A DNA stretch of 64,000 nt from contig CAJINV010000010.1 of NCBI GenBank assembly GCA_905178155.1, forward strand, positions 1,308,451 to 1,372,450, read 5' to 3'. A model generated the notes under the pieces. That model saw only the letters and a program-made list of their open reading frames with translations. It was not told the DNA's origin and searched no databases. Below are positions 6,801-60,368 of this stretch, in pieces; positions within the stretch are counted from its first letter, which is position 1; each line of letters starts with the position of its first letter. This stretch comes from Amoebophrya sp. A120 (Eukaryota; Protista; Dinoflagellata). A program made the position numbers and the translations under genes.

Positions 6801-9726
6801 AGCACCAATGCGCGACGATGCAACTGGACTTCCTGTTTCCGATGCGATTCAACCTCCAGTTCCGCACACAGGCGGACGAGCAGAAGGAAGCTGGCGAGCA
6901 GGCGGCTTTGGGTAACAAGGAAGGAGACAAGACAACTGCAGTTCCTCCGAAAGGCAAAAACGCCGCTTCTGGTGCCGCTGTTGCCATAAATGGGAACGCG
7001 GCCGCGCTGGCCTCCGCGGACGGGGACTCGGCGGGAACCAAATCCGCTGTCGACAAGGAGAAGGAAAAAGAGGCGAAATTGGATATAACCCGCTCAGGTG
7101 TTACAATCTCAAACGTTGCAATAGAGTATTGAAATCTGTGATGCAAGATTGCATGATCTAGCCAAGTCTCATAGGCTTGCGCATGACAAGTTCCAGAGCC
7201 CCAAGCCCCACTATAATCTCGCGAGATTTGTATTGCAAAAGGTGGAAAGCTGTGCGAGTCTGTCATGCTCATCATGCAGCACAAATTCCACATTCTATTG
7301 TAACGTTTGAGATTGTAACGGTTGAGCAAGTCATATTGGAAGCGTACGGGTTGGAGGGCGTCTTGAAACCGGGGCACGAGCGACCCGTGGTGATTCACCG
7401 GGCGATATGGATTGCAAAAGTGCCTGGGTCTGGAAGATTGCAACTTGTCATGCTAAATCCGAATCATGCAGAAATCTGTGTTGCATGACCGCCAAAAGCT
7501 GCCCACTTTCGACCATCTTTGGAAGAAGTTTCTCATGCAGGATAGGCATGGCAGAGACCTCACAGACTCTGTCATGCTAGGTCCCGCATTCCAGACCTCA
7601 TGGGTCATGAAAAACCTGCATGACAAGTTTACACTTACTTTTCCAGACCCAGACACTTTTGCATTTGATAGGCGATTATGGGATCGGTGGAGAGGTTCAC
7701 AGGTAGGAAATAGCAAGGATTCGAATTCGTACTAGTCCTAGTCGTGCTGCTTTACGGCCTACATTTATTTTGCATCATAAGATGAAATAGAATGAAGATG
7801 AGCATAATCTTCCGACGAGTTGTACCGCAATTTATAGATGATGCATGTTCATCAGCGCGTTCTTTATTTCTATCGCACACAAACACAAACACAAACTCAT
7901 ATAACTCATAAGTACGTACCAAACATACAGGCATCCTGTGCGAGCACTACGGTGGTAAGTGGCCATTTTTCCTCAGCCCGCGGCAGATCTATCCTGAGTA
8001 AAAACGTACCCACCCCAGAGTTGTCATGCAGATTTGCCATGACAGGAACATTTGTGATGCGCAACCCCATGACAGGCATTTTCAATCGTGTTTGGGAACT
8101 TGTAATGCTGTAAACAGGATCAGGAGGTCGATTTGTGATGCGGCTTTCCTTGCTAACTTGCACTACCTTACGGACTGAGACTTGTCATGCGTGACTCCTA
8201 AAGCTCCTAGGTTTGTGTTGCAAAATCCTCATCCTGACTCTGGTGTGGGTGCGTTTTTACTCAGGATAAGATCATGATCGTCCCCACCCACGCCGGCCTG
8301 AACAAGTACTGCGAGTACGTTATGCATTGCAAAAGTATCGTACTTCCAGTAGGTGTAGGAACACTCGCATTACAAATTTCCCCAAGAACAAAAATGGAAC
8401 TTGTCATGCTAGATCAGCTACAAGATTCGATTTGTCATGCAGGACTGCAATTGCCAAGAATCCGATGTTTTTGCGATGTATATTCATCGCGGAGCAGTAC
8501 CGCAACTTTGGTCTTTTCGCCGACGTCGACACCAGCAGTAAGACCATGAACAAGAAGGTCCGGGAGGCCCAGCTGGCCCAGTACAACTACGTTGCGATCT
8601 GCGGGGAGAAGGAGCAGGAAAACTTGTCAGTTAATTTGCGGGACCGGGACACGGGGAAACCGGTCGGGGAGTTCGGCTTGAATGATTCGGTGGACATGTT
8701 TGTCGCGAAATCCAACCCGAACAGCAAACCAGCGAACCAGTTTGACGCGTTTGAGGGACGCGTGCCGAAGCCGGCTAGTGCGGGAAGTAGTAGTTCTACT
8801 TCATCATCTGGAACAGGAACATCAACTGGAACTGCGACGAACTTCTCTGTGCAGAAGACGGACAACGACAAGAAGACATCTGCTGCCACTGCGGAGACCG
8901 CTGGCGCAACATCCACGACGAGCAACAAGAAGGAAAATCAATCCAGTATCAGAGGCAAAAATCCCCCCTCCCCATATCGAACAGGTATGCTTCCGAAAAT
9001 TTGTGTTGCTGATTTGAGGTCACGAATCTCGTTTGTCTTGCAAGAAGACAAGGGCAGAAGCTTCCGCCTCATTATGGAATTGATTTGTCATGCTGTTGGG
9101 CCTAAAGGCAAAGGGGAGGCGTTTGCCATGCTGAACAACTAGAGGACCCATACGCCCCTACCTAGCCTGGGGATCTGGCCGCAGGAGTGCCTCTGTGCAA
9201 TACAAACCGGATTTGCGTACACAAATCCAGCATCAGAAATTCCGTTTTGATATGGGGAGGGGGGATTTTTCCTTTCGATATCCAGCAAGAAAAACTGGGA
9301 GGCGCACTTCGCGGAGTTCCCGTACGCTGAGGGGTTTGAACTGTCTGAGACCGATAAGATATGCATTGCAAACATGTCTGATGAATCTGGAAGGATGCAA
9401 GGGTTGTCATGCTTGTCTAGCATGACTGAAGAGTTTGTGCTGCGTGTCCAAGAAGAGACCCTTTTGTTTGTCATGCAAAACGCAGTTTGTCACGCGGAAA
9501 GCGCAACACTAAGAAGCGCAAATATTTCTCATGCTTCGCTGTGCAATACAAAGAGTTCACTATTCACAATTCAGCATTACAAGTTTCCTTTTCCAGACCC
9601 AGACATATTTGCATTTGATATAAGAAACTCTTCGACGACTGCAACAAATCCGGGATGCCGAGCTCCGAGAATTTTCAGCGGTGGTTCGAGCATGTGGGGA
9701 GCTTGGTGCGGGCGGGACGCTGCTGA
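3898..9726 (+). CDS. TARS: Threonyl-tRNA synthetase, eukaryotic cytosolic type, copy 1
   Basis: TGS domain (ITITLPDGK), editing domain ([17 protein letters not shown]), core motifs [48 protein letters not shown], and anticodon domain ([13 protein letters not shown]). GT-AG introns: 4207-4335, 4484-4659, 5111-5281, 6148-6310, 6601-6778, 7703-7930. Also 8 introners. TGA at 9724-9726. Confidence 0.95.
5414..5563. mobile_element. Introner family B (150 bp)
   Basis: TSD CGGAA; TATGAACTGCAAAAGTATCG...CAGGATA; absent from ThrRS copy 2. Confidence 0.9.
5823..6031. mobile_element. Introner family D (209 bp)
   Basis: TSD CTGCC inside the KPMNCP motif; TIR with AGTGCAC and CTCCCCCTC. Confidence 0.9.
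7084..7335. mobile_element. Introner related to family F (252 bp)
   Basis: TSD TTGGA; ~40-bp imperfect TIR containing GTTACAATCTCAAACGTT. Confidence 0.88.
7406..7670. mobile_element. Introner family A (265 bp)
   Basis: TSD GGCGA inside IHRAI; same TIRs as the element at 869. Confidence 0.9.
7990..8268. mobile_element. Introner family C (279 bp)
   Basis: TSD AGATC; TIR TATCCTGAGTAAAAACG...CGTTTTTACTCAGGATA. Confidence 0.9.
8321..8482. mobile_element. Introner family B (162 bp) with decayed right TSD
   Basis: Left TACGT, right TTCAT; TATGCATTGCAAAAGTATCG start; paralog reads EYVAEQ without interruption. Confidence 0.85.
8947..9280. mobile_element. Introner, singleton (334 bp)
   Basis: TSD TCCAG; TIR AAAAATCCCCCCTCCCCATATC / GATATGGGGAGGGGGGATTTTT. 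Confidence 0.88.
9360..9620. mobile_element. Introner family A, subfamily A2 (261 bp)
   Basis: TSD TAAGA; close sister of the element at 20743. Confidence 0.9.
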
Positions 9727-10978
9727 AACGGAAATGGCAATATGCTGTCTTCTTGGTACAACAACGTCAACAGCTTCGGGTCCTTTGCCTTTCAGATACG
9801 GCAAGGAAAATTTTTACAGCAACTGAAAAACTATGTTAAAAACGAGGGCGCCATGTGGTTGATAGATGAAATGACAGATACGGTTACGGAGAACAACCTT
9901 ACCTAATCATGCAACTTCTGAGGGAGGTGTTGTAGTTGTAGAGCCCCCTTAAAGAAACAGATAGAATGAAATGGTTTTTGACATTCGATGAAAATGAAAA
10001 TTTGTATTCGACCATCTCGTTCTTGAGAGGTTTCCGATGAATGTAAAAGGTAGACTTTCGGTCTTTTTGGTGAATGATATTGATTTTGCTTTGCGGGTTG
10101 CTGACGTGACAGACGCAGCGAAGATCCGAGAAGAATATACTTAGCTTAGTAGAAGTGGCGGATAACTGTAAATACGCAAAATTTCGAATAGAGCAACGAG
10201 CTCCGCATCACATGATAGAGTGGTTTTGTATAAAGTTGATGTCGGACGAAAGTAGTTAGGAAAAAAAAGAATTGAATAAATTTGGTTGACCACACGAGGA
10301 TTTTCCACGAAATGGTTTCGAACGATGATCATGATATCAATGGGAAGAATTAAGTCTCGAGCAAGACAGGCAATTGAAGAGAAACATTTATAGCTGTCCC
10401 GAGAAACAGAAACATGACGAAGCTGTCAGCAAAAATCAAATCAGCCGGTGGCATGCGCTGCTGGTGTTGTTGTTCAGCCACATGTGTATCACTACGAAGG
10501 ATCATCCCGAACAAACTTTTTTACAAGGAAAGATCATCATGTTGATCATCAGATCAGCTTGCATTGTTTCTACTTTTTGCCCGGACAATACATGTAGCGA
10601 ATTTAATCGCATCCAGTAGAAGATCTATTACCATCGCAAGATCGCAATCACTTTATCAAAGCAAGAAATTATTCCTACGTACATGAACATGGAACGCACG
10701 GTAAGAATTGTTCTTTGCGTTCTAAAATCTTCAGGCACTCCGGATTTGCGAAAAGTTAGATTTTTGACCTTTTATTTCGTACCCATAGTACGTTCGACGC
10801 ATTAGCATTACCCATACATTACACTTGCATCCACCCTAAACTTGTGCGTTTGATGTCCTAACAAGAAAATTTCTCAGAAACACCCCACGACATTCACATT
10901 CACCACCAAAGAACCTAAAAGATTCACATTTTCCACCGTCAAAGGCGTTTTTACGTCGCCACCGCACTACAACAAGCC

Positions 10979-13900
10979 ATGGCCACGACGCAGCAAGCCC
11001 GGCGTCTAGTCGCCGGCGACGGGCCGCAGATTGCTTCTTCCAAGCTTTTCCCGGATCCGAAAGAATTCAAATGCGGACAGAATGCGGAATACTTGAAGAA
11101 AAGATTACAGGTGTGGGAGAAGGTGAAGGCAAAACACGAGCAAGCGATCGCGAAAATCCCAAAGAAGGAGATCACGATCACACTGCCGGATGGCAAGCTG
11201 GTAAAGGGGACGAGCTTTGAAACCACGCCAGAATCGATTGCTGTTGGGATATCGAAGAAGCTGGCAGAAAAAATCGTCGTGGCTAAGGTACTGAGTGTTC
11301 GCGAGTAGAATCATGATCTTCACTTTGCTTTATGCAGAAGTGTGCCCGTGATGTGGTCTTCCTTTCAATCGGCGTCTACTACCGAAGAAAGCACGCGTTT
11401 TCATTTTCCGCATGACAAGCTAAATCACATTACAAAATCAGGTCTATTACTCCGAGACCATTGCGTCACTGTCTCAAGTAGTAAACGCCGATGAGGAGCC
11501 AGAGTCTGACGAGGATGGGTCAGATGACGAGGATATCCTGAGTAAAAACGTACCCACACCATAGTTGTCATGCAACTCTGCATGCTTAAAATGTTTCTCA
11601 TGCGGAGCCCCATGAGAAGCATTTTCTAATGCGGTTTTGAAATTTGTCATGCTCCAATCAGCACGAGATACTAGATCTGTAATGCTGCTAAACTAGCTTA
11701 AACAGCACTACACTACGCGGAGAAACTTGTCATGCCAAACAACCAAAGCTGGCTGATTTGTCTAGCAGATTCCCCATCTTGACTCTGGTGTGGGTACGTT
11801 TTTACTCAGGATAGAGGAAGACGCTAAGGACGAGAAATTTGTCCTCTGGGACATCTCGAGACCACTGGAAGGAAACTGTATTCTTGCAGCACTTCTTGTT
11901 TTTCAATTCTAACTCGCGTTGATCACTAAGCTCGGGGGCGTACTCCGCGTTGATCACTAAGCTCGGGGGCGTACTTATTTCCGGCAAGCTTTAATGCATT
12001 TCGCAAAGAAGCGAGCCGCCGGGCATTCAAGCCTGGGGCCTAATTTTTCTGTCCGACTTCCACGATCCTCAAGAGGCGACGGGGATAGTGGTTGTTTTCG
12101 TCGGGGGCTAAGGATTCTCTCCAGCTCTTAGGAAGTATCTTTTGAACGCCAAGCGTGAGGGTGGTAGCGCGAAGCGAACCCCAATTGAACTTCCCTTCAC
12201 TGCTAAAACGGGTGGTGTTGCGTCGTTCGAGATGCCTGGCTCTCAATGCAATCCAGAGCAGATGATTAGCCTTCAGAAAATTTAAGCGGTTATTAGTGCA
12301 GTTTCTGGCTCACCTAGGTAGCTCCTACAGTACCGAAGAAGCTTGTGCTGAATTGTTTTTCAATTCTGCACACCTTGGCTGCGTGACAGAGTTTTTTTTT
12401 GACGTGCATGCATTGCTTCTGGTTCTTTGCACTTCAACAAGCTGCTCTACTTTCTCGAGGCGCCTGTTTGCAGTGCTTTTCTGTAGTAGGTACAACCAGA
12501 TGAATTCATTTGTATTGCAAGACGACCATGAAGATCATGATCAACCGGCACGGAAATCATATCAGGCACCCTCCACCTCCTGACGTTCGACGATAAGCTT
12601 GCGTCCGACGTTTTCTGGCACAGCTCCGCTCACGTGCTGGGGCAGTCGATCGAAGTGGAGTTCGGAGCGCACTTAACCATCGGGCCCTCGTTGGAGAAAG
12701 GGTTCTACTACGACGGTTTTTTCGGAGACAAGAAAATTTCCACGACGGACGACCTGCCGAAATTAGAGAAGCGTTGCCAGGAAATCGTGAAGGAAAACCA
12801 GCCGTTTGAGCGGGTTACTCTGACCAAAGAAGACGCGCTCGAAATGTTCGCGGATAACCCCTTCAAAGTGCAGCTGATCACGAACAAAGTGCCGGACGGA
12901 TCCATGACCAGCTGCTACCGCTGCGGGCCATTAGTCGACTTGTGCCGCGGACCGCACCTGCCGTCCACGGGAAAATGCAAGTCCTTCTGGATCCACAAGA
13001 ACAGCGCAAGTTACTGGTATCATCTTTATATATCACGATGGTGTATGTTGTAGGTTTTTCTTGCAGCGAGTTTGAGACTTGCATGAAACTCAAGATGAAC
13101 ATGAAAGACGAATAAGTTGTTTTACCATCGTACCATCGGCTTCATCGTGTCACATAGGTGTGACGTCAATTATACCGATCTTTGTCAACAACAGTCCTCT
13201 GCGTCTGCGCCATGGCATGCGAGATGCCTATTTGCGTGGCACCGCACGCCTTTTCGCCACCGCACGCCCACGCCCACCCCTGCCGCCCCAGCTGCGCATA
13301 GCATGCTCGTCGCTCCGCTTTACGCCGCGCCGCGCTGTCTAAAACCAAAACCGCAACGCTGCGGTAGCAATATGTGCTTCCCAAAACGAACAAAATGCAA
13401 ACTCTAGGGAAGGAACTACAGCAACAAAACGAAAAGCATCATCTTGTTCCTCCCGATCATCCAAAACAAAAGTAGGCAAGAACCGCCCGAATGATCAAAC
13501 TAACGAACTACACAACTTCACCACAACAGGCTGGGTAAGGATAAGAACGATTCCCTCCAGCGCATCTACGGTGTCTCCTACCCCTCCGACAAGGAACTGA
13601 AACAGCACAAGACACAGCTCGAGGAAGCGGCTAAACGCGACCACCGGGAGATCGGGAAAAAGCAGGAGCTCTACTTCTTCTCCGACTTCTCCGCCGGCTC
13701 CTGCTTCTGGATGCCCCACGGCGCCAGGATTTACAACAAGTTGGTGGAATTCATGCGCCGGGAGTACGCGATTCGCGGGTTTCAGGAGGTGATCACGCCA
13801 AATCTGTACCACGAGTCTTTGTTTAAAGCGTCCTATGCATTGCAAAAGCATCGTACTAGTATAAATCGCAATACAAATTTTCTCAGAAGGAGAAATGGAG

Positions 13901-16381
13901 TTTGTAATGCTGATTTGGCTAAGAAACAAGATTTGTCATGCATGATTGCAATTAGTACTAGTGCGATACTTTTGCAGAGCATACGTCCGGACACTACTAC
14001 AAGTACAAAGACGACATGTACAACATGGACATTGTATCAAACAAAAAAGTGTTAACGTTAACGGTTTTCATAGATTGCAAATATGCATGACACATTTTGC
14101 CTAGCATGCGTGCTATGCATGACAAATTTGGGCGCGTTTTGTGATGCGTTACTGCATCACAAATTCCGTTGACGTTAACGCTTTTTCCTGTGATACCTTG
14201 AGGGGGAAAGATGGTTTCTGAAGCCCATGAACTGCCCAGGGCATTGCGTGGTTTTCGCGCACCGCGTGAGGAGTTACCGGGAGTTGCCGCTCCGGATGGC
14301 GTCCTTCGGAGTCTTGCACAGAAACGAGAACAGCGGGGCGTTGAGTGGTATACTTTTGTAGCCAGGGTTTTTTTTCTTTGACGCGAAGGAATGTGTAGTC
14401 AAATCAAAGTCGTGCACACTGTGCTGCGGTCCAGGAGGGGCTTGTTGAATGCTTGTATTGCGATGCTTTCTCTACTAAGTACGGGAGTACGAAATCCGTC
14501 TCAACATACAACTCGCACACCCAACCAATTACCAGGTCTGACCCGTGTCCGGCGGTTCCAGCAGGACGATGGCCATATCTTCTGCCGCATGGACCAGGTG
14601 AAATCCGAAATCAAAAACGCCTTGAAATTCGTGCAGTTCATCTACGAGACCATCGGTTTGGAGTACACCATGGTCCTTTCCACCCGCCCAAAGAAGGCAA
14701 TCGGCAGCAAGGAAGTGTGGGCCAACGCGGAGAAGCAATTAGCAGAGGCTTTGAACGAAAGCGGACTCCCGTGGGGGCTGAACAAGGGAGATGGGGCATT
14801 TTACGGACCGAAAATCGATTTCAAGGTATGTCGAGTTTTATTGGGATAGATTTTCAGATCCTTTTCGTTACATCACACAACATCTCGTAGTTGCTAAAGT
14901 TACAAGTTAGTATGCTTGTCGTTGTCACGCCGCATGTTGACACCAAAATCGGATTCTCATGATAGTGGCGTCAGGCTCACAAAGAAGATCAATCAATACT
15001 AGCGTCAAATATCATGCTTGTGTACATTCGATTGTGAACTCCCATTACCCCAGGTTAAAGACGCGATCGGGCGTCAGCACCAGTGTGCGACGATGCAATT
15101 GGATTTCCTTTTCCCGATGCGTTTCAACCTGCAGTTCCGCACGCAGGCGGACGAGCAGAAAGAAGCCGAGGCTGCCAAGGCCGAAGGAGAACAAGCACAG
15201 GCAGCAGGAGCTGCTCCGAAGGAAACCAAGGAGAACAAGAAAGACAAAAAAGCCGCTGCTGCTGCCGCTGAGCCGAAGGAACCGCGAGCGTCTGCTACGT
15301 CTGCAGATGGCGGTGCACCAGCGGCGGATGCTGGAAAATCTGCTGCCGACAAGGAGAAGGAAAAGGAACAGAGAATGGAAGCGGTTGGGTTGGAAGGTGT
15401 GCTGAAACCCGGTCACGAGCGGCCGGTCATGATCCACCGTGCCATTCTAGGATCCGTGGAGAGGTTCACAGGTACTGACGTGTAAGGGAGTCATGTAAGT
15501 TAAGATCTAGTGAGGTTTTTTCTTTGATGATGCAATAAACAATGTTGCGCTTCATCTACAACTGAATTGAAAGTGCAAGTGCTGTCTGCATGAAATCCAC
15601 ATCCAAATCAGGTATCCTGTGTGAGCACTACGGCGGCAAGTGGCCGTTCTTCATCTCCCCGAGACAGGTGATGATCGTCCCGACGCACGCTGGTTTGAAT
15701 AAGTACTGCGAGTACGTCGCCGAGCAGTACAAAAACTTCGGCATCTTCGCTGACGTCGACACCAGCAGCAAGACCATGAACAAGAAGGTCCGGGAAGCGC
15801 AGCTGGCCCAGTACAACTACGTTGCGATCTGCGGGGAGAAGGAACAGTCGGCGTTGGCGGTCAACTTGCGGGATCGCGACACGGGCAAGCCGCTCGGGGA
15901 GTTCTCGATTAAAGATTCCGTGGAGATGTTCGTCGCGAAATCCAACCCGAACAGCAAACCTGCGAACCAATTTGACGAATTTGAGGGCCAGAAGCCGGAG
16001 CCAATCGGCGCCGGGAAAAATGGTGCGTCTTCAAGCAGCTCCGCAGCTTCTTCTGCATCAAAACCAGAAAAGTTATCCGCGGAAACAGCAGGTGCGTCGA
16101 GCAAAAACGACTCTACTACTTCGAAGGAGACCACTGCAGCTGCTGGAGGTGCGAAGAACAAGAAGCAGGAACATCAGAATAATGGTGAGAACAACAAGAA
16201 CGGGGCAATAAAGAAGGATTGGGAGTCGCACTTCGCACAGTTTCCGTACGCTGGCGGATTTGAGATGTCCGCGACAGACAAGAAATTGTTCGAGGAGTGT
16301 AAGGGCGGCATGCCGAGTTCGGAGAATTTTCAGCGGTGGTTCCAACACGTAGGAAGCTTGGTAAGAAGTGGGATTGTGTAG
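10979..16381 (+). CDS. TARS: Threonyl-tRNA synthetase, copy 2 (tandem paralog)
   Basis: Same motifs as copy 1, with KPMNCPGHC intact. GT-AG introns at the same codon positions: 11288-11441, 11878-12565, 13017-13529, 14348-14535, 14826-15053, 15472-15611. Three introners. Confidence 0.95.
11534..11813. mobile_element. Introner family C (280 bp)
   Basis: TSD GAGGA; near-perfect TIR TATCCTGAGTAAAAACGTACCCACACC. Confidence 0.9.
11911..12352 (-). mobile_element. Probable 5'-truncated non-LTR retroelement fragment inside a GT-AG intron
   Basis: Exact 15-bp direct repeat TTGTTTTTCAATTCT at 11896-11910 and 12353-12367; ~31-bp tandem repeat at the left end; the equivalent intron in copy 1 is only 176 bp. 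Confidence 0.55.
13834..13983. mobile_element. Introner family B (150 bp)
   Basis: TSD CGTCC inside FKASGH. Confidence 0.9.
14035..14195. mobile_element. Introner, singleton (161 bp)
   Basis: TSD CATTG/CCTTG; TIR with GTTAACGTTAACGG / CCGTTGACGTTAAC. Confidence 0.85.
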
Positions 16382-17089
16382 CTGATGTGGAGAACCGTTG
16401 TCAACAAATGGAGTTGTAGATCTTTGGAGGAGGAACAGTAGTGTAATGCAGCTCTTCTTGTCACACAGAAGTTGAAAATCAAAAAGAACGCTACCTTTAT
16501 CGATGAATAAAGCGCTCGCTTACTCTTATTTCACCAGTCTCTAATTATAGAGGAATATCGCTTACTCACGCTCATATTTCTGATTGTATCTATTGCTTTC
16601 TGCTGGTTCTGGTAGCGAGACGCAAGTCGCAGGATCACGTGTGATTTTTGCGGAAGTAGAGCCTTTCTGGTCACGTTAACACAATAAGCGGTGAAGTGAA
16701 AGAGACGACGCAAACTTTGAATGACTTTGAATCGATATCAGCGACAATGCCACTTCATGTTTCACTTCAAACTGAGGAGAAAGTAGGCTGCGTCATTCAA
16801 AGAGAACGAGAGCCTTTTGGTAGCACAAACGATGATCAGACTTTACGTCGAGACGCGCGGCCAATCTTAAGAAAAAAGATGATAAAAAAGTAGAATGAAA
16901 TTAAAGCGTAAGTGCGAGAGCTTCACCTTCATGCTCGAAGACGAGCTGCGCGAAGAGACTATTGCTGACACTGATCATGGAGTGTGTTCCCCTGGTCTAC
17001 TACATTGGATTTTGCTTTTGTTGTGTCTGTCTTTGTTCTGGAAACAGCAGCAAAACTCTGCGCATCACCAAGCCTACCAGTCCGTAGGC

Positions 17090-18420
17090 GCCAAGGGAGG
17101 AGCTAGCTGCGGGATAGGCTGCGGGCCAGCGCGCTAAGCGGCCGAAAGTTCGGCGGGGTTCTGGGTGGGCGCCTTTCGTGTAGCAAAATAAACGGGGGGG
17201 GCGGCGGTCGCGCAGGCCGGGCAGTGCGTGCGTCGTGGCGCTGGTGTGGCGCCTCGACCCCCGGGGGCTGGTTCGCGCGATCACCGGGAGACGCACGCGC
17301 CCGCCTGCGCTTGTTATTGTTGCCCCGCCGGCGGCGTTGTGCCATGGACCCGGGCGGGCGGGCAGGCGGCAGCCTGGAAAGAGGGCCCGAGCCCTTTGCC
17401 AGAGCCCGAGCCAGGCCATGTGGGCCACGTATGCACCGGGCGCCACGGTAAAGGCGCGCCATGGATGACCCAAGGCCGGACGGGGCCCAAACACTGCCCC
17501 ACCCCCCGCCCTCAGGGCATCCCTGGGCGCACCGGCCTCCGCGCCGAGCCTGGCTGGTGGCGGACGCCGCCGGGCCGCCCTTCTTTGCCAAAGTGCAGGC
17601 CCTGGCTCGTTGTGCAGCGGCGGCGCCGCGTGCGCCCGCGCTAGGCTGCGCCCGCCCCGGGGAGAATCGCCCGAAGGGCCTTCGCGCGGGGCCGGGGGGA
17701 GCATGGCGCGGGCGGCGGGCGAATGGGCGGGGGGCCCGTGGAAGGATGCCTCTTGCGTCCAGCCCCTTCGTCGATGAGGCTCGCCCCGCCGGGAAGCCGT
17801 CGGCCCGCGCAGTGCCCCGCCCCAATACATAGCTAGATGCTCACTGGCGGGGCCGGGCCGCCCCGCGCCTTGCAGGCCGGCGCGGCCGCCGCTTGGCCCC
17901 CCTGCCGACAGGCCGAAGGCCCGCCCGGGCCGCGGTCGCCCAATCGCTTCCCGCCGCCGCCGCGGGGCGGTGGCTTTCGTGGTGTCTTCGGTCGGATGGG
18001 CCGGGCCGGCACCGCGGCCGTAGCGCTGCCGGGGCGCCCGCGTCGCTGCCCAGGTGCCCAGGATCTCCCTTGCCTCGCCCCTGCCCCGGGCCGGCTTGGG
18101 GGCTGGCAGGCAGAGGAGGGAGACTGACCCACCCGGCCGGGTTCCTCGGTTTGATTGGTGGGTGGGCCAGTGCCTATTGTTCTATTTGGCGCGTCGCGAA
18201 GCGCGTGTGGCTGGTGCCATCCGTGTGCGTTGTTAGTTGCAGCGGCCCTACTCGCGTTGACGCTCGCAATGGGTAGCCCCTTGCCGCCGGGCAGGCTCTT
18301 GCAATATTATATTTAGAGAAGGAACTCCAACTCGCCTGCCAGGATGGCCTCGGTGGTCGATGGTAGGTGGCGGCCGCGTAGTGGCTCATTGGGCGACCCG
18401 CCCGAGGTGTTCACCCCGTC
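17090..18420. other. GC-rich non-coding intergenic island
   Basis: GC content jump; no recognisable protein; boundaries approximate. Confidence 0.55.
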
Positions 18421-19632: not shown

Positions 19633-22600
19633 ATGGACGCTGCCACCACGACCCTCACCCCCGATCAGGAGGAGCAGCTCACCCTGTTCCGGGAGGTGAC
19701 GGCGAACGAGGACCGACAGCGATGTATCCAGTACCTGGAGATGAGCAACTGGAATGTGGAACAGGCCATCAACTTGTCCATGACCGGCGCATTAGACAAC
19801 ACACCAGCAACAGGCTCCGACCACGCGGCCGCCATGAACTTCATAACCGGCGACCACGAACCGGCAATAGGACCACAACAGCAGACCAGGCCGAGTGGGG
19901 GGGTAGAGCAGAGCTTCTTTTTGTTGAGGATGATAGATGCATGATTACTTGTCTTCTAGTTGGAGATCGTTGGATGGGACATACTACCTGTCTTGCGCGA
20001 TCAACATCGGGTCGTGCAGCTGTTCTATAACCCGCCGTGCGGTGCTTCAAAGTAAGTAAATGTAAATCGACACTACAAGAGACAACAATACAATATGCTC
20101 AGTACAAAGAAACAACTCAAACCAGGACCCCGACGCATCCCTCGCCCAAAAAGTGGTCGAGAAGGTCGGCAACGTATCCTGTGCAAAAGTATCGTACTCG
20201 TATTGCAATCATGCATTACAAACTTTTTTCTCAAGGGAAAACAGCATTACAAATTTTATTTCTCATGCTGAGGGAATTTGTCATGCATTTATACGAATAC
20301 GATACTTTTGCAGTTCATACAACGCCGCCAGCAAGGTACTCAACGGCATCGGCGGGTTTCTGCACTCCATGTTGATCCCGGACGAAGTATGAACTGCAAA
20401 AATGTCTGGGTCTGGAACATTCTAAACTTGTGATGCTGTCTCTGGATTCTGAAAAAATTTGTATTGCATGACCAGCAAGAGGGCTCCAGTTTGTGCTACG
20501 CAGAGCGGTCATTTTTCATGCTGTAGAGGCATCACAAAGCGCTCTAAAAATCTGTGATGCTACGGCATGCATCACAGACATCATGAGCCATGGAAAATAT
20601 GCATGACAAATCTAGAAATCTTCCAGGCCCAGACACTTTTGCATTTGATACGATGACGGGTATAACAACAACACCTCCGGCGGAAGTAGTTCCAGCAGCA
20701 GCAGTGGTAGAGCGAACCGGAACAGTTTCAAAGCGTACTACGTATCAAATGCAAATGTGTCTGGGCCTGGCAGATTGTTTGTCATGCTTGTCTGGCATGA
20801 CTGAACAGTTTGTGATGCGTGTCAAAGAAGAGACCCGCCTTGTACAACTTGTCATGCAACAACGCAGTTTGTGTTTGTCATGCGGAAAGCGCAACACTAA
20901 GCAGCGCAGATATTTCTCATGCTTGGCTGTGCATTACAGAGCATCCACTATTCCCAACCCAGCATTACAAGTTTCCAGAACCAGACATATTTGCAATGCA
21001 TACTACGAGCGACAATACAAGACGGACGCTTCGACCGCCTGCCCGGACTTTTTCGACGGAACGTTTCAGCAGGCAATAACGAAAGCGAAGGACAACATGA
21101 AACTCCTTATGGTCTACTTCCACTGCGAAACCGCAAGTTTGACCGACGACTTTTGCAAAAACTGTCTCAACAACGACATCGTGACAGTGATGTTGAGTGA
21201 CACGTGCGTCAGCTTCGGGGCCGACATAAACGACCGGACCAGTTACGACTTGGCAAGGCAGTTTCAGGTATTTGTTTTGTTCTTGTGGACGCGGACGTCG
21301 TCGTGTTTGGCTGCATGACAAAAATGCCAGAATTGACGACCGCCTGCAAAACGAGTCGTGATACATCATGAACGTGAAGGAAAGTAAACAGATTTTTACA
21401 AGCTACACGACTCATGTGCACCATGAATCACACAAACAAACTTCATGACTTTTCAGGTTCAACGCTACCCGTACCTGGCGCTGGTGCTTCCCGTCTCCGC
21501 AACGGACTACAGGATACTTCACAAAGTCGACGGGCAGGTATGAAAATGAAGTTATTTGTGACGTTGCATGACAAAGTGAAGACACAGAAGTGGCGACGAT
21601 AGATTTGCCATGCTATGCTGAAAGAAGAAGTAGATGCAGTGCTGCTCATACGACTTTGATTATTTTGTGATGCAAATCATGTATCCAAACAGCAAGCCGG
21701 ATCAGTTGACGGCCTCGTCGCGCTTTTGACCCAAGCCGCCGACGACCTGGAGCAAAATCGTATCAAGTGTAAAAGTGTCTAGGTCTGGAAGAATGCATGC
21801 TTGTCTGGCATGCTTGTCTGGCATGACTCGAGAATCTGTGTTGCATAGGCACGAAAAAACCCTCTGGCCTGTCATGCAAAAGCGCAGTTTGCCATGCGGA
21901 ATACGTAAGACATGGCAGCCAAAAAAATTGTCATGCATGTTATCATGTCGTACTGCAGTGCGTCTATCATTATTTTTAGCATATACAATTTTCCAGGCCC
22001 AGACATATTAGCAATCCATAAACCGGGCCCAGCTAGTAACGCAAGCGAACCAAGTTCAGCACGACAGGCTTCTGCGCGCCGAGCAAGACAGGGAGTATGA
22101 AGAGGCTTTGGCGAAGGTACAGTGTGGCTGGTTTGTCATGCAGACTGTCAATGCATATACAACAGCGTTGTCCTCCTGCTCCTCACGAGTGCGCAACACA
22201 AGTTTTTTTCTGAAAAGAATCTTCCTTGATAAATTTCATATCACCTCCTCCACAGGACCGCGAAGCCGAGGCCGCACGGCAGCGGGAGGAGGAGGCCCGA
22301 CAGAAGGCGCTGGAAGAGGAAAAACAGGCCCAGCTCGCCAGGGAGCAAGCGGCGAAAGACATCGAGGCGAAAAGGAGAAAACTGGCGACCGAACTTGTCA
22401 CTGTGGACCCAAGCACGACGGAAGCCAAGACGAAGATACAAGTGAAATTCCCGACGGGGCAGAGGGTATCTTTACTTTACTAAAACTAGGAATGAATTTG
22501 TTTCTATTTTCACCACTTGGGTCAACGTCGTCATGCGGTACCAGCATGCTAGGCGAAGTGGAAAGAAATCAGGCTTTGTCTGTTGCAACATGACAAATTG

Positions 22601-22916
22601 CATTCCGTTGTTTTCGTTGCATGACAAACTTCTGAAACTCGGTAGCAATGTCTGATGCATCATCCACAATGCAAATTGCTATCAGGTCAACCGTACGTTC
22701 CTCCAGTCCCACACACTGAAGGACCTCTTCAACTGGGTCGAGGCGGCAGAGTACGCCGAAACGGGGACAAGTATCAAAGTCCCGAGCAAGTTCTCCCTCA
22801 ATACGTCCTTCCCCACGAAGTTGCTTCAGCGCAGCGACGAAAGCCTGAAGGACGCCGGGCTGGTGCCCAACGCGCAGGTTTTGCTACAGGATCTGTCCAG
22901 CGACGACGAAGAGTAA
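19633..22916 (+). CDS. UBX-domain p97/Cdc48 adaptor, FAF1/FAF2-like (UBA-UAS-coiled coil-UBX)
   Basis: UBA-like N-terminus (LEMSNWNVEQAI), UAS domain (PDFFDGTFQQA...KLLMVYFH), LRAEQDREYEEAL, UBX domain (IQVKFPTGQRVNRTF...TSFPT...SLKDAGL). GT-AG introns: 19903-20125, 21268-21456, 21538-21692, 22117-22255, 22466-22685. Four introners. Confidence 0.88.
20175..20319. mobile_element. Introner family B, reverse orientation (145 bp)
   Basis: TSD CAACG; TATCCTGTGCAAAAGTATCG...TTTTGCAGTTCATA. Confidence 0.9.
20388..20650. mobile_element. Introner family A (263 bp)
   Basis: TSD CGAAG/CGATG; family A TIR core. Confidence 0.88.
20743..21002. mobile_element. Introner family A2 (260 bp)
   Basis: TSD CTACG; sister of 9360. 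Confidence 0.9.
21761..22020. mobile_element. Introner family A2 (260 bp)
   Basis: TSD AATCG/AACCG; TATCAAGTGT...GCAATCCATA. Confidence 0.85.
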
Positions 22917-23569
22917 CAAGTTCTTGAGCGGGGAGGAGGAGGTGGTGTTCATAATCGCGGCAAACTACCCGGCGGCTGGGATAGAGCGCACGGTGGTGAT
23001 GGTGCTCCTGTGGGATCATGTTGAGTAGAGGAGCCCCCGGGGGTCATTTTCCGTGGTAGAAGTGCTACGCCTACTGAAAGCCGAGGCTAGTGGAAGGGGG
23101 CTGTTTATTGCTCCATCTTGCGGTAGGGGAGAGTCCCTGATCGTTTTTTGTGACAAGGAGCTGAAGAAGTAGAATGATGAGTGATCGAGAAGGGACTGGT
23201 GGATCGATGATTAGCGATCAACGCGACTGATCATGAAAACTCTACCTAGTGGCATCGTGCTCAGCAGGCGAAGAATAGTCAGTGCAAGCTTCTACGATAG
23301 TCGTGAATGTTGGTAGAACTGCGATTGCGGCTTGATGCTGTGTGTAGGAGCTCGAATCAACCACGACGGTCCGGACGCTACATTGAATCACTTCTACAGC
23401 CACTCAAAGGCGATAGTTTTTTCGTTGTGCTACACGTACAAGGGAGAGCTAAAGCAACAAGAACACGCTGTAGAAACGCAAATCGCTATGGCTGACTTGG
23501 AAGCCTGTGCCATCGAAGCCGTTGCTGTGGTCGTCTGATGTTCTGCCACTTACCTTGCTGGCGCTTTAC

Positions 23570-25000
23570 CATCTGATGCGCAGTGCGAGCTACTCCTACC
23601 ATCATCCGACGTCTCAGGGAGTAGGCCAGGGCGACACGTTCCGCCCGCGCCCGCAAGTGCAGCAGGGCGCGCGGCCTTCGGGCATCATGGGCCGACCGGA
23701 TCCAAGACCCGCCTACAGAGCGCGGCGGCAGTCCAGGCCGGGGCAAAAAGAGCGGGGGCGCCGTTCGCCATGTCGCGGGGCGCAAGCTAGTAGCCATGGC
23801 CAAGCGCTGTGGCCGCCTCGCCCAGCTGCTGAAGCTGGTGGCGATCCCCTTGGCCCGCGTGCTACACTTGCATCAGGCGGCCCGGCCGCATTCGCGCCCA
23901 AGGCCCTTCGCGTTTCCCCTCGGCCCGACTTAGCCGCCGACAGGAATCCGCGACGCGGGGTCCGGGGGCCGGCCTGCGGGTGCTTTGGCGCGCGCTTGGC
24001 TTTTTTTTGGCCGGCGTGCGTGGCGGATGGCGCGCGCCCCCAGTGCAGGCGGCGAAAGTGTCCTTCGAGGCGGGGGAGAAAGCCATGGCGATGAACGTAA
24101 GGCGGGCCCCTTTATTGGGCGGCGCCGGTCGTGTCGTTTCTCCCTCCGGCCGGCGCGCGGGCTTGGGCCTTTGGAGGTGGCGCGGAAAGGAGCGGCCGGG
24201 GCCCCGGGGCAGTGGCGGCGAAGGCAGGGGGGAACCCCTATCCAGCTGACGAGTGCCGCCCTGGGTCGGGGGCAGTTGGCCGCGTCTGAGAAGAGTGACG
24301 GGCCGCCGCCCGCCTTGCCCATGCCGCCCCCCGGCCAACCGATCAAGATCTACTGCAACCACGCGGCGCCCGCCTTGCTTTCTGCCCGCCCGGCATTCTA
24401 AGCAACGCATGGCCGGCCCGCCGGCCCCTCGCTCGCTCTGGGTCGGCCGGCGCGGCTTGCGCTGCCTGCCTGTTTGGGTTTTGCCAATTGCCACCAAGGC
24501 CGGGGCCGCGCTTCGCTTCGGAGTCCGTGAATCCGCTCCCCTTGGGGCATTTCGCGGGCCCTGCTTGCCCGCCCGCCGTGGTTGCAGCTTCTGGGGGCGT
24601 TGATTGTGGCGTTGGGTTTTCTGTGCTGCCGCCGGCTAGCCCCGCCCTTTGGCACGGACGGCGGCGCGCCGGTGCGCCTTGCCCACCATTTGCATGCGCA
24701 GGCCGCGGGCGCCGGCTTTGTTGGCAAGCGTTGGGCGGCGCAGCTCCTCGGCCCGAATGTTGGCGCCGCCCGCCCCCCGGTTTCGCTGCTCTCGCAATGC
24801 CTATGGCCGCACTCTTCCTTCGTTCCACCCTGCTTGCCGCGGCACCAGATAGAACCGCAGCGGGGGGGGGGGGGGCGAGCTACGGAAGCCGGCACGCCGG
24901 CAGGGCCGGAGTTCGCTTGCCCCTAGCGCGCAGCGCTAGCCCGAGCAAGGGGCTTAAAAGAATATACAAGAAAGCGCGTGCACGACGCGAGTGGTGGCGG
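23570..25000. other. GC-rich non-coding intergenic island
   Basis: GC content jump; no recognisable protein; boundaries approximate. Confidence 0.55.
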
Positions 25001-25346
25001 TGTTCCTTTGCGTTGGGCATTTCAGGCCATGACGCAGGGAGTGTGAGTGTGTCTGTTCTTCTCCGATATAAACCATCCAGAGCTCATCTCTGCCTTTCGT
25101 CACAATATTTGCACAGCGTTTTTTGCGTTTGCGTCGTGTCGCCAGCTTTTTCTTCTTGGTTGTCGGTCCTTGCTGTGAGGTTCAGTTTTTTTCTCATGCT
25201 GATGCTGACGCAGCTCCAACTCCCTGTCCTGCCTGTGTATCTACCGCGACCGAGTGAAGCAAGCTAGCAATTAGATAGGAAATCAGAGCTGTTTAGTTCG
25301 CAAGCGAGGCACAACCGTAATAACCTAACAAGCACCCCTCTCCAAA

Positions 25347-26354
25347 ATGGGCAAGAAGCGCATGAAAACCCTCTCCGACCTCAAGGTCGCCATTATCGGA
25401 GATGAACAAACCGTGACCGGGTTGTACGAGAAAGAAAACTTCTTGAGTTCCGGCCGCAAAGTTTGTATCTCTATTGCATAAGCATGACACGCGTTTGTTG
25501 AAGATGATTTAGAGTTGCACCTGCAGAAAAAAGGCATTCCTGAACAAGAACAATTTGTGTGTAGTAGTCCGAGGACTCAAGACTTCGCTTCCATATTCTA
25601 GTCTTGGGCGGTGGTGGCATGGTCGATGGGCAGGGGAAGAAGAATTTCATGGTCGTCGACGGCGCAACGCGGAATCACGAGGTATAATAGAGACAATGTT
25701 TTAATACGACGATACCAAGTACGACTAAACTTGTGATGCAGCACAATCTGAATGACATAGTCATAGAATCGATGCGGATGCCACTTCATTTTCATTCGAA
25801 ACAAAAACCTCAGATCGCCGAGCAGTTTCAGGAGTGGACGACGCGGAAGGATCTCGCCGTGATCCTGATCTCCCAGACGGAGGCGGGAAAGATCCGAAAC
25901 GTCGTCGACGATTTTGCCCGCAGCGGGCAGGTGATCCCCGCGGTGCTGGAGATGCCGACCAAGGACGTCGCTTACGACCCAAAGAAGGACTATGGAAGCG
26001 TCAGGTTTGAAATCGTCAAAGTTAAAATAGTTTGGCACGCATAAAATCGATACCGGTTGGAAGCCCAATTTCCAAGCGGCGCATGACAAATTTTCGGAGT
26101 ACCGGAATCCAATTTGTCATGCTGTTTGGGCACAGAAGACTGCTTTTGTCATGCTTGTTCAGAAGCTCTATCCCAAACCCTAAATAGGCTCACAATCTGC
26201 CTCGCTTGCCTTCCCGGCAAGACAGGCACTTCATGCCTTGCATTTTATGCATGACAAATCATTACAACTTTGACGATTTCAATCCTGACAGATCCATAAG
26301 GACCCGATCATGCAGCGCGTGCAGATGTTCTTCGGAAGCAACCCGGTCATGTGA
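25347..26354 (+). CDS. ATP6V1F: V-type H+-ATPase subunit F
   Basis: MGKKRMKTLSDLKVAIIGDEQTVTGLVLGGGG...KNFMVVD...RKDLAVILISQ...IPAVLEMPTKDVAYDPKKDPIMQRV. Removed segments: 25425-25600 (non-canonical), 25682-25813 (GT-AG), 25991-26303. Confidence 0.92.
25425..25595. mobile_element. Degenerate (old) introner
   Basis: TAC...ATA ends; residual inverted repeat TCTTGAGT/ACTCAAGA; TSD lost (GGTTG vs TTCTA); the adjacent GT...AG join gives the wrong frame. Confidence 0.65.
25991..26298. mobile_element. Introner family G (308 bp)
   Basis: TSD AGGAC; TIR GTCAGGTTTGAAATCGTCAAAGTT / AACTTTGACGATTTCAATCCTGAC. Confidence 0.9.
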
Positions 26355-27249
26355 GGAGGTTCTCCGAAAGAACGACGAGGGAAGGCGAAAACCACTTAAT
26401 TTCCTATCACAAGAACATTTTTTCACCTGCTATTTTTGAGGTAAGTACTACTGTCAGCACCCTGTGCAGCTACAACATTTATCTGGCGCACCAGTTCGAA
26501 GATGTAGTTGCCAGGAACAAGCTGTGACAATTTTTCATCTGATTTCTTAGTTCTCTGTGGTCTGTTAGTATGGTAGAAGTTCTTCATCTCTCACTGATTC
26601 TTGTGCTTACGTCGCGTTAGTCTGCGGGGTAGGGAATGAATCGGAATAAAACATCAATTCGGGTTGACAGCTAAAGAATTCATTGTCGATGTGCTAAAGC
26701 AAAAAAAATTCCTTTATCGAAACAAAAAAACAAAGTAGAGCCGCGACCTTCGCGCGACCAAAGATAGCAATGCAAGCCGCTAAGCATAGCTGGTGAAAAA
26801 GGGTGTTCGATATATCAAAACTTGGCAGTGAAAGAAGATGAAGATCCGAAAAACGACACGCTCTTGTCATTAATACCAACTCGCCTGCGCTTCGCTTTTT
26901 TCGCAGAGAAAATCACTTCTACATAGTGACGTCGCTTTACTGTGTTAGAAGCACCCTGCTCAGGATCAGAAACCAATGTGTCGTCTCTACTGGTAGCCTG
27001 TTTGAATGATTATACCCATACGAAGAGAGCTGCTAGTACGAGTACCTTGGATGGCTATCGCTTTCGATGATGTGAGTAGTACTCAGCGCTACGCATTTGT
27101 TTACCAGGACGGGACACAAACATGGAGCGCGCGGCGTAGTAGTAAAAGTGAAAAAATGTCCACGTGGTCTCCGCAAGAAGTCCGTCTTGAAGAGTTGTAC
27201 ACAAGTGGTCCCAAAGTGTAGCTGACTGCTCTCGACGATTATCCGCCAG

Positions 27250-30200
27250 ATGCGCAACCCCACATCAAGCACGTCCACCGGCAATCCCCGCCTCGGCGGG
27301 GACGATGACGAGGGGCCGATCCTTGTGGACCGCACCGAACATGTCATCGACGAAACCACAACTGCGCTGGAAGACGAGGAGCTGCTGCTCCAGCAGGAGC
27401 GAGAAGAGCGCGAGCAAGAGGAATTGTTTCAGAAACAGCGCTCGGCGGACAGGGGCAGTAGAACTGGTGGCGCACCAGCCAAAGGCCCAGGAGGTACTAC
27501 CAGTGCTTCGGCCTCCAGAGAGTCCTCGAAGCAGTTTCCTACTGGTGGTAGTGCTGTCGGACTCGGGCAGATTTCAGATGGAGACAGTCAGCAGCAGCAG
27601 TTGCAGCAACTATCTCAATCTGGGTCTCCCACAGGGGCACCGGATCACCACCCTCTGCTTGATGGGCAAATAAAACTGACCCAGCAGCCGCTTTCCGACC
27701 ACGATTCAGGTGAGTCTACCACTTCCGAAGACCATTTAAACGATGTTTTTGAAATCCGGGATTTCACCGCCGTGTCGCCGCTGGAAAAACTCTCTCGGGA
27801 GCTGCAACTGATCGTGAAAGGCTGGAGCAGCCACTTCAAATCTACCTCGGGATGTTTGACGTCCGTGGTAGATTGCCGGGATACCGCACAGTGTTTGAAA
27901 TTGTTGGAGCAGATGCGGAGAAATAGTGGCGGAACTTTTAGTGCCGCTGGCGGGAAAACATCAGCAAACATCGCGAAAACAAATCAAAATCTTCCATCGC
28001 CCGCGGCTTCAGTTCTAATCGACCACCAGGAAAAGGAGTTTAAAGCTTTGACCCTGCAATTCCAGCAAGCGCTGCAGTTTTACAGCGAGCACAAGTCGTC
28101 GCAGGGCCGGATGATCGCGAGATTTCGGTTCAACAACATGAAATACCACCTACATGTGTACTACGGCCGCCCGGTACCGCTGAACGTGACGGATGAGCTG
28201 TTTCATCGGTTTACGAATCATATAGCTGGTGGTGGTGGTGGTCTTCGTCTTGTTGTTGGCGGCGGGCCCACAACGACAGGCGCTGCTAAGTCGTCCACTG
28301 GTATAATCGCTGCTAGCTCTAGCGCAACATCAACTGCCCCCGCCTTTCCACCGGTCCTGAAAGAGCTCGCGGACCTACTCGCGCAGGAGCAAAAATTTCC
28401 CGTAAAGTGCCACCCGAATACCCGGAGATTCGGCGTCCGGCAGTTCATCATGGTGACCCGGGAGCGGGTACCAAATGCAAAAATGTCTGGGTCTGGAAGG
28501 TTGGAACTTGTGATGCTAACTTTGGAGTCCAAAAAAATTTGTATTGCATGACCAGCAAGAGGAGTCTAGTTTGTGCTACGCGGCGGGGAGGGCGTTTGTC
28601 ATGCGGAGTAGGCATCAGCAAGCCCTCTAAAAATCTGTGATGCTAGGGCGTGCATTACAGACATCCTGGGTCATGCAAAATATGCATGACAAGTCTCAGA
28701 ATTATCTTCCAGACCCAGACACTTTTGCAATCCATAGAGGGAGTCGCAGGAAATTTCAAACGACTCCGCGAACTTTCTCCTGTCCGCGATGCTGATTGCG
28801 TATGAACGCCTCAGGTTTGAAATCCTGAAAGTGGAAATGATTTGTAATGCAAAAAAACGATTCCAGTTGAAGTGGCATTTGTAGTCGGCGCATGACAAAT
28901 TTCCCGGGCACTTAAAGCGTGTCTGTCATGCAGCTCAAGGCAAGGGGGGGCCCTTCTGTCGTGCTAAGCAGCACTCCAATTCTTGACCCCTAGCAGGACA
29001 ATAGTCAGCCTCCATTGCGTTCTCTGCAATACAGTCTTTTTTGCGTCGCATTTCATGCATCACAAATCATTTCCACTTTGAGGATTTCCATTCTGAGGCT
29101 TTCATATTGCGGTGCGAGCGGCGTTTCCGACCGCCGGGTTCAAGAGCCTGGAGTGCGGGAGGAAGGCAAGGGGTGCAGTACAACTAGCTGCGTCGAGTAG
29201 TCGTGGCCCCGGGGCGAAAGCACTGAATAAGAATAATATTAAAGCGGGTAGAACAAGAACATCTACATCTTCTTCAACATCACCCGCATCAGGAACTACG
29301 ACTATTGCAGTCCCTACTACTTCTTCTTTCTCCGACACTGCCCTGGACATCCCCTGTTTTGTGAACCAAAACCCGGGTGAGGTATGGATTGCAAATATGT
29401 CTGGGTCTGGAAGATTGTCAGCTTTGTCATGCATATTGGGCACGAGGACCCATGACGCCTGTAATGAATGACCTAGCATCACAGAATTTCAGAGGGCTTT
29501 CTGATGCCTTTTCCGCATGAGAAATGCCTTCTCCGCATAGCACAGACTGGACTCCTCTTGCATACAAATGCTTCGCGGGTCCAAAGATAGCATCACAAGT
29601 TGCAACCTTCCAGACCCAGACATAATTGCGATGCATATGAGGGGGTAAATGGCAAAACGATCGGCGAGGGGTTCTTCCTTCTCCCCGACAAGAAGACGGC
29701 TTTGCGTCGGAATTTTCTCTCCTGCGCGCGGTCGAGTAGACACGTAGACCCGCTACTGAAGGACCTACCCGGATTGCTGATCTTCTGGGAAAGTTTGAGA
29801 AATAAGGTGCCGAGGGAGGTCAATTTGAAGTACAGAAAGGACTGCACTTGGACGAAGGCGGAGCATTTGACAGAGCTCTTTCACGCTTGTTCTCGTACGG
29901 ATGTTTCTGGTGCAGCTACGGTTGCATCTTCATCTACTGCTGCATTTATGTTCCCGCAACTGCAGCAACCAGTTGAAAACTATACAGGGAAGACCTCCAA
30001 ATCTCTTACCCCAAGGGAATTAGTCCGCGTCCAGCACGGCCCGCAGATTCGCGCCCGGTTTGTGTACCTTATGGCGCTCTCAACTGTTACATTCTCAACT
30101 GTTACTTACATGAATTCGTGATGCAAGAATGGCAACAGTAAAAGGGGCTAGCTTGCTGCTTTCGCATCACAGATTTGGCACAGATTTAGGCGCTGTTGAG

Positions 30201-55195: not shown

Positions 55196-55288
55196 CCCCT
55201 CCTCAATCGCTGCGGCGGTGGTGCTAACCTGGATAACGTCCTACCGCACTCCCCTCCTGAACGCGCTGTGGTAAACTAGCTACCCTCT

Positions 55289-60311: not shown

Positions 60312-60368
60312 CTTCAATCTAACTTATCTGACTAGAAGAGCCGGCTTGAGTCTCAAGGCGTAGCGTAG

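Follow-up and report, generated by a model that had tools for sequence, protein, structure and literature searches.

Introner ends appear to be inherited apart from the interiors they enclose in the dinoflagellate Amoebophrya sp. A120

Introduction

The genome of Amoebophrya sp. A120 harbours tens of thousands of non-canonical introners, which poses the question of how these elements move. The original account, as far as its consulted text goes, found neither a candidate transposase nor an inverted repeat specific for a family (PMC7789003). A stretch of 64,000 nucleotides of this genome, here called the window, raises the question in a particular form, as introner copies with the same interior in the same orientation carry their outermost bases, the caps, on exchanged sides. 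The preliminary description of this flip-flop considered inversion of the interior within the terminal inverted repeats (TIRs) or exchange of ends through a circular or hairpin intermediate, with one mobilising enzyme probably shared among families. Do ends and interior of an introner then descend together or apart? The flip-flop itself is confirmed and its earlier interpretation partly supported, and it is one part of a wider pattern of ends versus interiors. The new aspect, apparently undescribed, is the separate, modular inheritance of introner ends and interior.

Materials and methods

The window was scanned for TAT...ATA segments that measure 100-700 nt and have a direct repeat of 5 bp, which gave 27 elements, 22 of them with a perfect repeat; five additional elements (386, 8321, 28469, 50583 and 50796) were recovered via similarity or as inverted repeats. 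A larger sample was obtained by a metagenome scan with the inner TIR, which identified at least 169 loci, all on contigs of one prefix that represent a second assembly, and most statistics are based on this one assembly. The flanks of these loci are unlike the window, and the elements reach up to approximately 90% identity to window copies. Detection of 214 elements among the matches listed, together with 29 window copies and minus two duplicates, gave a set of 241 in which the near-duplicate locus L026/L093 was kept. Interiors clustered into groups of 85 (A1), 34 (A2), 24 (B), 18 and 11 members with zero orientation conflicts. Family A comprises two interiors, A1 and A2, on one common TIR, which is carried by 159-166 of the 241 elements depending on the filter. 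Linkage between the two ends was assessed in 166 elements with the family-A TIR against an ascertainment-constrained null, which respects how loci were found.

Results

[quoted passage not shown] Two tandem threonyl-tRNA synthetase (ThrRS) genes (approximately 3661..16858, + strand) host several elements and provide each other's empty sites, and a protein of Amoebophrya sp. A120 that has threonyl-tRNA synthetase domains matches one exon of this tandem gene with 100% identity. Inverted repeats of A120 introners are given, by the consulted text, as TAT followed by seven less-conserved bases and AAA, and the introners as having direct repeats of 3-5 nt and non-canonical splice sites without an internal transposase (PMC7789003). 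Equally, the present elements are built of TAT...ATA ends, TIRs of approximately 30 bp and a 5-bp target site duplication (TSD), and are spliced out. Over 482 ends, T, A and T occupy the first three positions in 100%, 99% and 98% of cases with a TAT start in 470, frequencies that are partly circular as TAT-like ends were demanded by the detector. Position 4 is C or G, and positions 11-13 are AAA, with A in 91-95%, partly fixed by the scan pattern for family A, and in 67-90% of the 102 ends belonging to neither A nor B.

Deletion of the element plus 5 nt yields an ungapped junction against the empty site of the paralog in six of seven cases, the seventh (8947) lying within a gapped, diverged stretch, and regains open frames of 6930, 2847 and 1365 nt. 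One contig of run X3 lacks the elements at 8947 and 9360, and the 74 letters that lie between them agree with the prediction. The A1 introner at 20388..20650 (+; caps TATGAACTGC / TATCAAATGC) is skipped as 268 nt (element plus 5), GT..AT, as contigs of runs X5 and X7 show by the joint 20386-20655; these three runs are all of one study and their RNA label is a guess. Run X11 (2026 RNA reads), from which only 65 partial reads could be placed, was uninformative. [quoted passage not shown] Neither a transposase nor an autonomous element with the same ends was found among the open reading frames of 35500-64000, and viral contigs gave 0 matches. The window also contains a Copia-like element with TGT...ACA ends and a 5-bp duplication. 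An internal motif of the TYGTVATGC type occurs 1.1-2.9 times per 100 nt in all families and 0.023 times outside, approximately 50 times the background. The TAT-S ends, the AAA at positions 11-13, the 5-bp duplication and this motif, being common to all families, suggest one trans-acting factor, mobilising or splicing; the mobilising enzyme assumed in the preliminary description is thus plausible from the common ends and motif, and none was found.

The exchanged caps are seen in both A interiors. The A2 introner at 9360..9620 (+; TSD TAAGA), located in ThrRS copy 1 and recognized by the empty site in the paralog and by its lack in an RNA contig, carries TATGCATTGC left and, as reverse complement, TATCAAATGC right, and the A2 introner at 20743..21002 (+; TSD CTACG), of which the right 30 nt are matched by a DNA contig with zero differences, carries the reciprocal caps TATCAAATGC / TATGCATTGC. 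Their interiors score 251 on the same strand versus 26 reversed, and the alignment agrees. The A1 introners at 869..1130 (+; caps TATGGATTGC / TATCAAATGC; TSD ACTGA) and 28469..28736 (+; caps TACCAAATGC / TATGGATTGC; TSD GCGGG/GAGGG), the excision of the latter contributing to the regained 6930-nt frame, score 211 versus 46, and the latter is equally reciprocal to 7406..7670 (+; caps TATGGATTGC / TATCAAATGC; TSD GGCGA). The designation as sister copies does not hold for 869 and 28469, which have an interior score of 0.55 and are far apart in the tree. If ends were drawn independently, the chance of an exact reciprocal pair would be 0.11 among the five A1 copies, 0.07 among the four A2 copies and 0.007 for both. 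In the larger set, one well-supported sister pair, L106/L165 (support 99/96) has sites 4-7 swapped with site 10 staying on its side.

A non-reciprocal copy is present already within the window, as the A1 introner in reverse orientation at 29383..29637 (-) carries TATGCATCGC / TATGGATTGC, both G-type. Further A2 copies are located at 21761..22020 (+; caps TATCAAGTGT / TATGGATTGC), where the first 51 nt, consisting of cap, TIR and 21 nt interior, equal one DNA contig with zero differences, a confirmation from reads of how cap and interior are joined at one end only, and, as a degenerate A2-like introner, at 50796..51079 (-; caps TATGCATAGC / TATCAAATGC). A rare C at TIR position 24 is common to 20388, 20743 and 21761.

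Sharing of caps between families was also confirmed, with TATGCATTGC and TATGAACTGC found in A and B and TATCCTG in B and C. Family B introners of approximately 150 nt are represented by 20175..20319 (-; caps TATGAACTGC / TATCCTGTGC) and further copies at 5414, 8321, 13834, 31752, 34186, 49039 and 50583, and family C introners of approximately 280 nt by 7990..8268 (+), with TATCCTGAGT as both caps and an empty site in the paralog, and further copies at 11534 and 31960. Free exchange of caps between A and B is so far unsupported, with no CAAA or GGAT cap among 48 B ends: four B-right-type caps are found on A TIRs and no A-specific caps in B. Family B is polar, with A at site 6 in 23/24 versus 1/24 ends, and barely flips. 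In A1, G at site 4 is found at 42/85 left versus 13/85 right ends (p=3e-6), and this bias together with the near-full polarity of B indicates that flipping is family-dependent or selected against.

Throughout the larger set, ends do not follow the ancestry of the interior. On the interior tree, almost no signal comes from the variable TIR sites 4, 5, 7, 10, 14 and 15; among 24 tests of these six sites in A1 and A2, only one gave a number of changes below that of shuffles at p<0.05. The left and right caps are found in all four class combinations, with site-4 pairs in A1 of G/C 37, C/C 32, C/G 8, G/G 4 and other 4, and in A2 of C/G 12, C/C 11, G/C 7, G/G 3 and other 1, so that C/C and G/G account for 36/85 and 14/34, respectively. 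Caps thus ignore interior subfamilies and reciprocals occur, the opposite of caps tracking separate subfamilies. Interior columns, each left out of its own test, have a median nearest-neighbour signal of 0.59 and 0.64. By distance from the tip, this signal is -0.03 over bases 1-20 (21 columns), -0.14 over bases 21-30 (1 column) and, beyond a step near base 30, 0.42-0.59 for base 31 and further in; in two smaller families the interior signal (0.17, 0.27) is too low for the contrast to show. The swap of the outer 10 bp noted previously is real and its 10-bp limit is not, since positions 14-15 vary alike and the uncoupling from the interior extends over the whole TIR of approximately 30 bp.

In 50 independent close pairs with a mean interior distance of 10%, the six variable sites differ in 26-62% of cases versus 28-64% in random pairs, and for the remaining positions of the TIR, as far as 28, the difference amounts to 0-9%. 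A cap change at one end was observed in 12/50 of these pairs versus a reciprocal change in 2/50 (1.8 reciprocal expected), and L004 and L139, with an interior difference of 2%, have only one cap class in common. In one family (p=0.027), nearest relatives tend to keep the same unordered cap pair, which is not the case in the two largest (p=0.10, 0.14). General mosaicism of the interior itself was rejected in three of four families (half-versus-half 0.70/0.52/0.50 versus random split 0.72/0.49/0.52), A2 being somewhat below its control (0.49 versus 0.62). Only two duplicated loci were found, both unchanged, and no locus was caught in two states.

Variation in the ends is block-wise. Linkage is tight among sites 4, 5 and 7 (Cramer's V 0.58-0.77), weaker between sites 4 and 14 (0.37) and absent between site 4 and sites 31-32, and all three cap sites differ in 26 of 100 close-pair ends versus 10.7 expected under independent site change. 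Multi-base variants of the TIR core, TCCCTGGATGTCTGG on 3 ends and TCTCCTGG on 4 ends, occur on both sides, on unrelated interiors and with different caps. Block changes and travelling multi-base variants favour transfer over point mutation as the probable source of this variation.

The two ends of one element are linked. Identical 10-mer caps are found in 10/166 elements versus 19.1 expected, and exact reciprocal 10-mer caps number 61 versus 31.5 expected (p=0.001; n=166), a result among ten site sets tested, of which sites 4, 5 and 7 only gave 75 versus 59.8 (p=0.16) and sites 1-15 p=0.055. Base 14 agrees between ends in 116/166 versus 80.1 expected, and the reciprocal excess holds inside the A14/A14 (p=0.004) and T14/T14 (p=0.021) strata. 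The recurrent end pairs are TATGCATTGCAAAT with TATCAAATGCAAAT, TATGGATTGCAAAA with TATCAAATGCAAAA and TATCAAATGTAAAA with TATCAAATGCAAAA; these top three types comprise 36/166 elements versus 24.6 under the null (p=0.0006), each sits on one or more further interiors besides A1 and A2 and, within A1, is found in both orientations. The examples 9360/20743 and 869/28469 are the first two end-pair types or one-base variants of them.

The base-14 type tracks TSD decay (12/45 versus 6/71, p=0.016; mixed types 32% and 0%), and closeness of the interior is unrelated to this decay (0.778 versus 0.772, p=0.81). Judged by the decay of TSD and TIR and by interior distance, T14/T14 elements seem to be the older ones, and as their interiors are more diverged (0.70 versus 0.79, p=0.0004), the uncoupling of ends and interior is incomplete with respect to age. 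T at 10 and T at 14 exclude each other (46:0).

Among neighbours within 6.5 kb, a rare TIR variant is shared in 9/69 cases versus 2.3 expected, and without the window in 6/64 versus 2.0 (three rarity thresholds, p=0.04, 0.001 and 0.02, and without the window 0.028, 0.018 and 0.135). This modest sharing, which is absent for common alleles and across families, indicates events after insertion. Local hopping was rejected, as neighbours are without shared interiors (p=0.895), as was a transfer of caps between adjacent A and non-A elements, for which none of 12 tests gave an enrichment, the match of 20175 and 20388 being a single case; facing ends of neighbours are not alike at common sites. Adaptation of caps to splicing is contradicted by caps following the side of the interior and not the transcript, with 39 A1 copies sense and 33 antisense, and 31 C/G versus 28 G/C among 121 elements without a link to transcription direction, strand calls being derived from a codon model in which neighbours agree in 33/37 cases and 10/12 window test sites fall on the expected + strand. 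Guidance of caps by the target site found an association with flanks in 0/48 tests at p<0.02. Homogenisation of the two arms was observed only in the 18-member family (p=0.007) and not overall, and a higher indel rate of the TIR was not seen (0.31 insertions per 100 nt versus 0.35-0.61 inside).

Discussion

To a large extent, the paired end repeats of an introner and its interior are inherited separately. The likely cause is that, in the conserved TIR core, recombination or gap repair turns the interior around or substitutes it in place between retained ends, accompanied by patch conversion; to this reading we assign a probability of approximately 0.5. Upon a break or excision, the outer ends and the target duplication would stay at the site. 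A flip would result if the retained ends paired in reverse with the element's own core TGTCTGGGTCTGGAA, and a different interior would be delivered if they paired with the core TGTCTGGGTCTGGAA of another copy. Short patches that alter one end only could be left by mismatch repair where the TIRs are paired, and new insertions would be made by a common trans-acting enzyme. Against this mechanism speaks that a homology of approximately 20-30 bp is short for ordinary recombination and that the side bias in A1 and B persists where frequent flipping should erase it.

Inversion alone is insufficient, given the C/C and G/G classes, the one-end changes and the same end pairs on unrelated interiors. A strict flip-flop, with both caps retained in each lineage and nothing but inversions of the interior, would agree with the reciprocal excess, with L106/L165 and with the one family that conserves unordered pairs; the two largest families, the pair L004/L139 and those same classes contradict it as the sole mechanism, and it is the least probable of the explanations weighed here. 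Patches without any entry of interiors into old sites, namely short ectopic gene conversion among thousands of TIRs as in concerted evolution, with time-varying allele pools and occasional flips, would be compatible with the dominance of one-end changes in close pairs, with a TIR core that diverges less than the interiors and with rare variants that travel without their caps, are locally shared and ignore family and side (72/488 in the same family and side, 14.8% versus 15.5% random), and the base-14 concordance could stem from shared age. Such conversion alone accounts neither for the shortage of identical caps nor for the reciprocal excess, both persisting inside base-14 strata, and B and A1 retain their side bias; this alternative has a fairly low probability. 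An excised circle, in which the joined ends form a junction cassette that is exchanged between circles of different interiors in either orientation before insertion, would explain why end pairs are linked and occur in both orientations, why the signal steps at base 30 and why TSDs are clean, and TIR introns of euglenids are released as full-length RNA circles (PMC11282704, consulted in part). A zero-spacer end-to-start joint was absent among the 15 rows listed of 42 joint rows, a weak test since contigs drop rare molecules, and neither the local sharing of rare variants nor one-end patches would follow from circles. The circular or hairpin intermediate of the preliminary description is thus unsupported so far and appears improbable. 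The nine rows that do have letters between show 20-39 of them at single-copy depth; in one other case 5 letters separate an A end from a B start, perhaps owing to an adjacent insertion.

Two explanations dispense with exchange altogether. The six TIR positions could be fast-mutating or unconstrained, with selection for enzyme binding or splicing keeping few combinations, in agreement with the seven less-conserved bases in the consulted text on A120 (PMC7789003), with the side bias and family-specific cap pools, which suggest selection, and with the mutual exclusion of T at 10 and T at 14. The excess of triple differences, identical multi-base variants on unrelated interiors and caps unlinked to transcription direction or flanking bases make this quite unlikely. 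Errors of assembly or polishing at the shared TIR could have joined wrong interiors to correct ends, as the signal steps at the repeat boundary, contigs of public runs break in TIRs and mis-mapped reads could produce local sharing of rare variants. Ordinary reads, however, span a 30-bp repeat, window and second assembly give the same combinations, a contig passes through cap, TIR and 21 nt of the interior of 21761 with zero differences, and mis-joins should not yield the base-14 concordance, the link to TSD decay or the side bias; such errors are very improbable as the cause.

The reading by recombination or gap repair in the TIR core has counterparts in known systems. Replacement among P elements is known from laboratory events with a known transposase and an 8-bp TSD, where the 17-nt staggered cut leaves TIR stubs. 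The A120 introners differ by an inferred natural, genome-wide pattern in 260-bp introners with a 5-bp TSD. Like the mechanism proposed here, end homology lets one P element of Drosophila replace another at a site by gap repair, and one end can be replaced by the other, according to the consulted part of PMC3887531. In ISWpi1 of Wolbachia (PMC3004938, consulted in part), the interior is likewise turned around between asymmetric TIRs that are short (23 bp), and a mismatch is converted; ISWpi1 is bacterial, the event concerns 2/22 loci and the ends became identical, whereas ends of A120 introners are identical less often than by chance and their end pairs recur on unrelated interiors. MITE-derived introners in Polarella, Symbiodinium, Micromonas, Fritillaria and euglenids are, like those of A120, short, spliced and equipped with TIR and TSD, some in either orientation, and shuffling of ends is unmentioned in the text consulted (bioRxiv 10.1101/2020.10.14.339549; PMC12130899; PMC11282704). 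Polarella classes recruit splice sites from the TSD or the element ends, as the same partially consulted sources describe, whereas in A120 neither TSD base content nor cap follows the direction of transcription. For the same organism, the account by Farhat et al. (2021; PMC7789003) shares the inverted repeat pattern, the repeats and non-canonical splicing with the present elements and notes that a family-specific inverted repeat motif was not found, and block-like cap alleles, linked end pairs, flips and uncoupling are absent from the text consulted. A literature search, with articles mostly judged by listing, gave no description of the uncoupling of ends and interior in introners, and figures and datasets on A120 may bear on it.

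On a tentative note, it is conceivable that introners are two-part elements in which the end pair marks and keeps the site and the interior is swapped or flipped so often that the ends have their own lineages across families, with a single integrase-like enzyme that makes 5-bp duplications serving all TAT...ATA families. If ends and interior are indeed inherited separately, this would account for the lack of a family-specific inverted repeat in A120, families and ages defined from whole elements or from TIRs would mislead, and the interior of an intron would be exchangeable without disturbing the exons.

Splicing and sequence variation of introners

Splicing at window 20387-20654, where a family A1 introner is removed from transcripts, is fixed to GT..AT (or a one-base shift) by the imperfect target site duplication, and the intron consists of the element together with most of the downstream duplication copy. 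Within the tandem of threonyl-tRNA synthetase paralogs on the forward strand (~3661-10400 and 10745-16858), the exons of which are ~80% alike, all seven introners checked (7/7) occupy one copy only. In a contig of run X1, a public sequencing run, an A-type end is joined to a B-type start with five letters between them at ~3x single-copy depth; this joint probably represents an insertion beside an existing element.

When family A copies are aligned, the commonest insertions measure exactly 3 nt (and 6 nt), both in the terminal inverted repeats (16/28) and in the interiors, where A1 has 46 of them. This length pattern in family A is observed despite the elements being introns. The internal motif T[TC]GT[ACG]ATGC is present two to three times per element in all introner families and in both orientations. 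Thirteen further matches in the window lie outside catalogued elements (for example, at 1716, 4249, 4585, 11410, 21313-22619, 25731 and 32846) and probably indicate older, uncatalogued introner copies.

Other repeats and a candidate lead to the mobilising enzyme

Tandem arrays are composed of internally palindromic 39-bp units (42993-43539), of 14-bp units (63815-64000) and of 13-bp units (38626-38767), the last falling between 59-bp inverted arms (37897-39369; 73%, ~1.4 kb apart), which differ in their ends from the TAT introners.

On the reverse strand, window 54668-60896 is occupied by a young Copia-like LTR retroelement with LTRs of ~530 bp (98.7% identity between copies), ends of the form TGT...ACA and a flanking 5-bp duplication, GGTAA. 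The element possesses an RVT_2 domain, and its 399-aa ORF and 1163-aa pol ORF share a frame with a single TGA between them. Its duplication is equal in length to that of the introners (5 bp), and a TGT start occurs in 3 of 482 introner ends (window copies and a second assembly). The Copia-like element is proposed as a candidate lead to the introner-mobilising enzyme.
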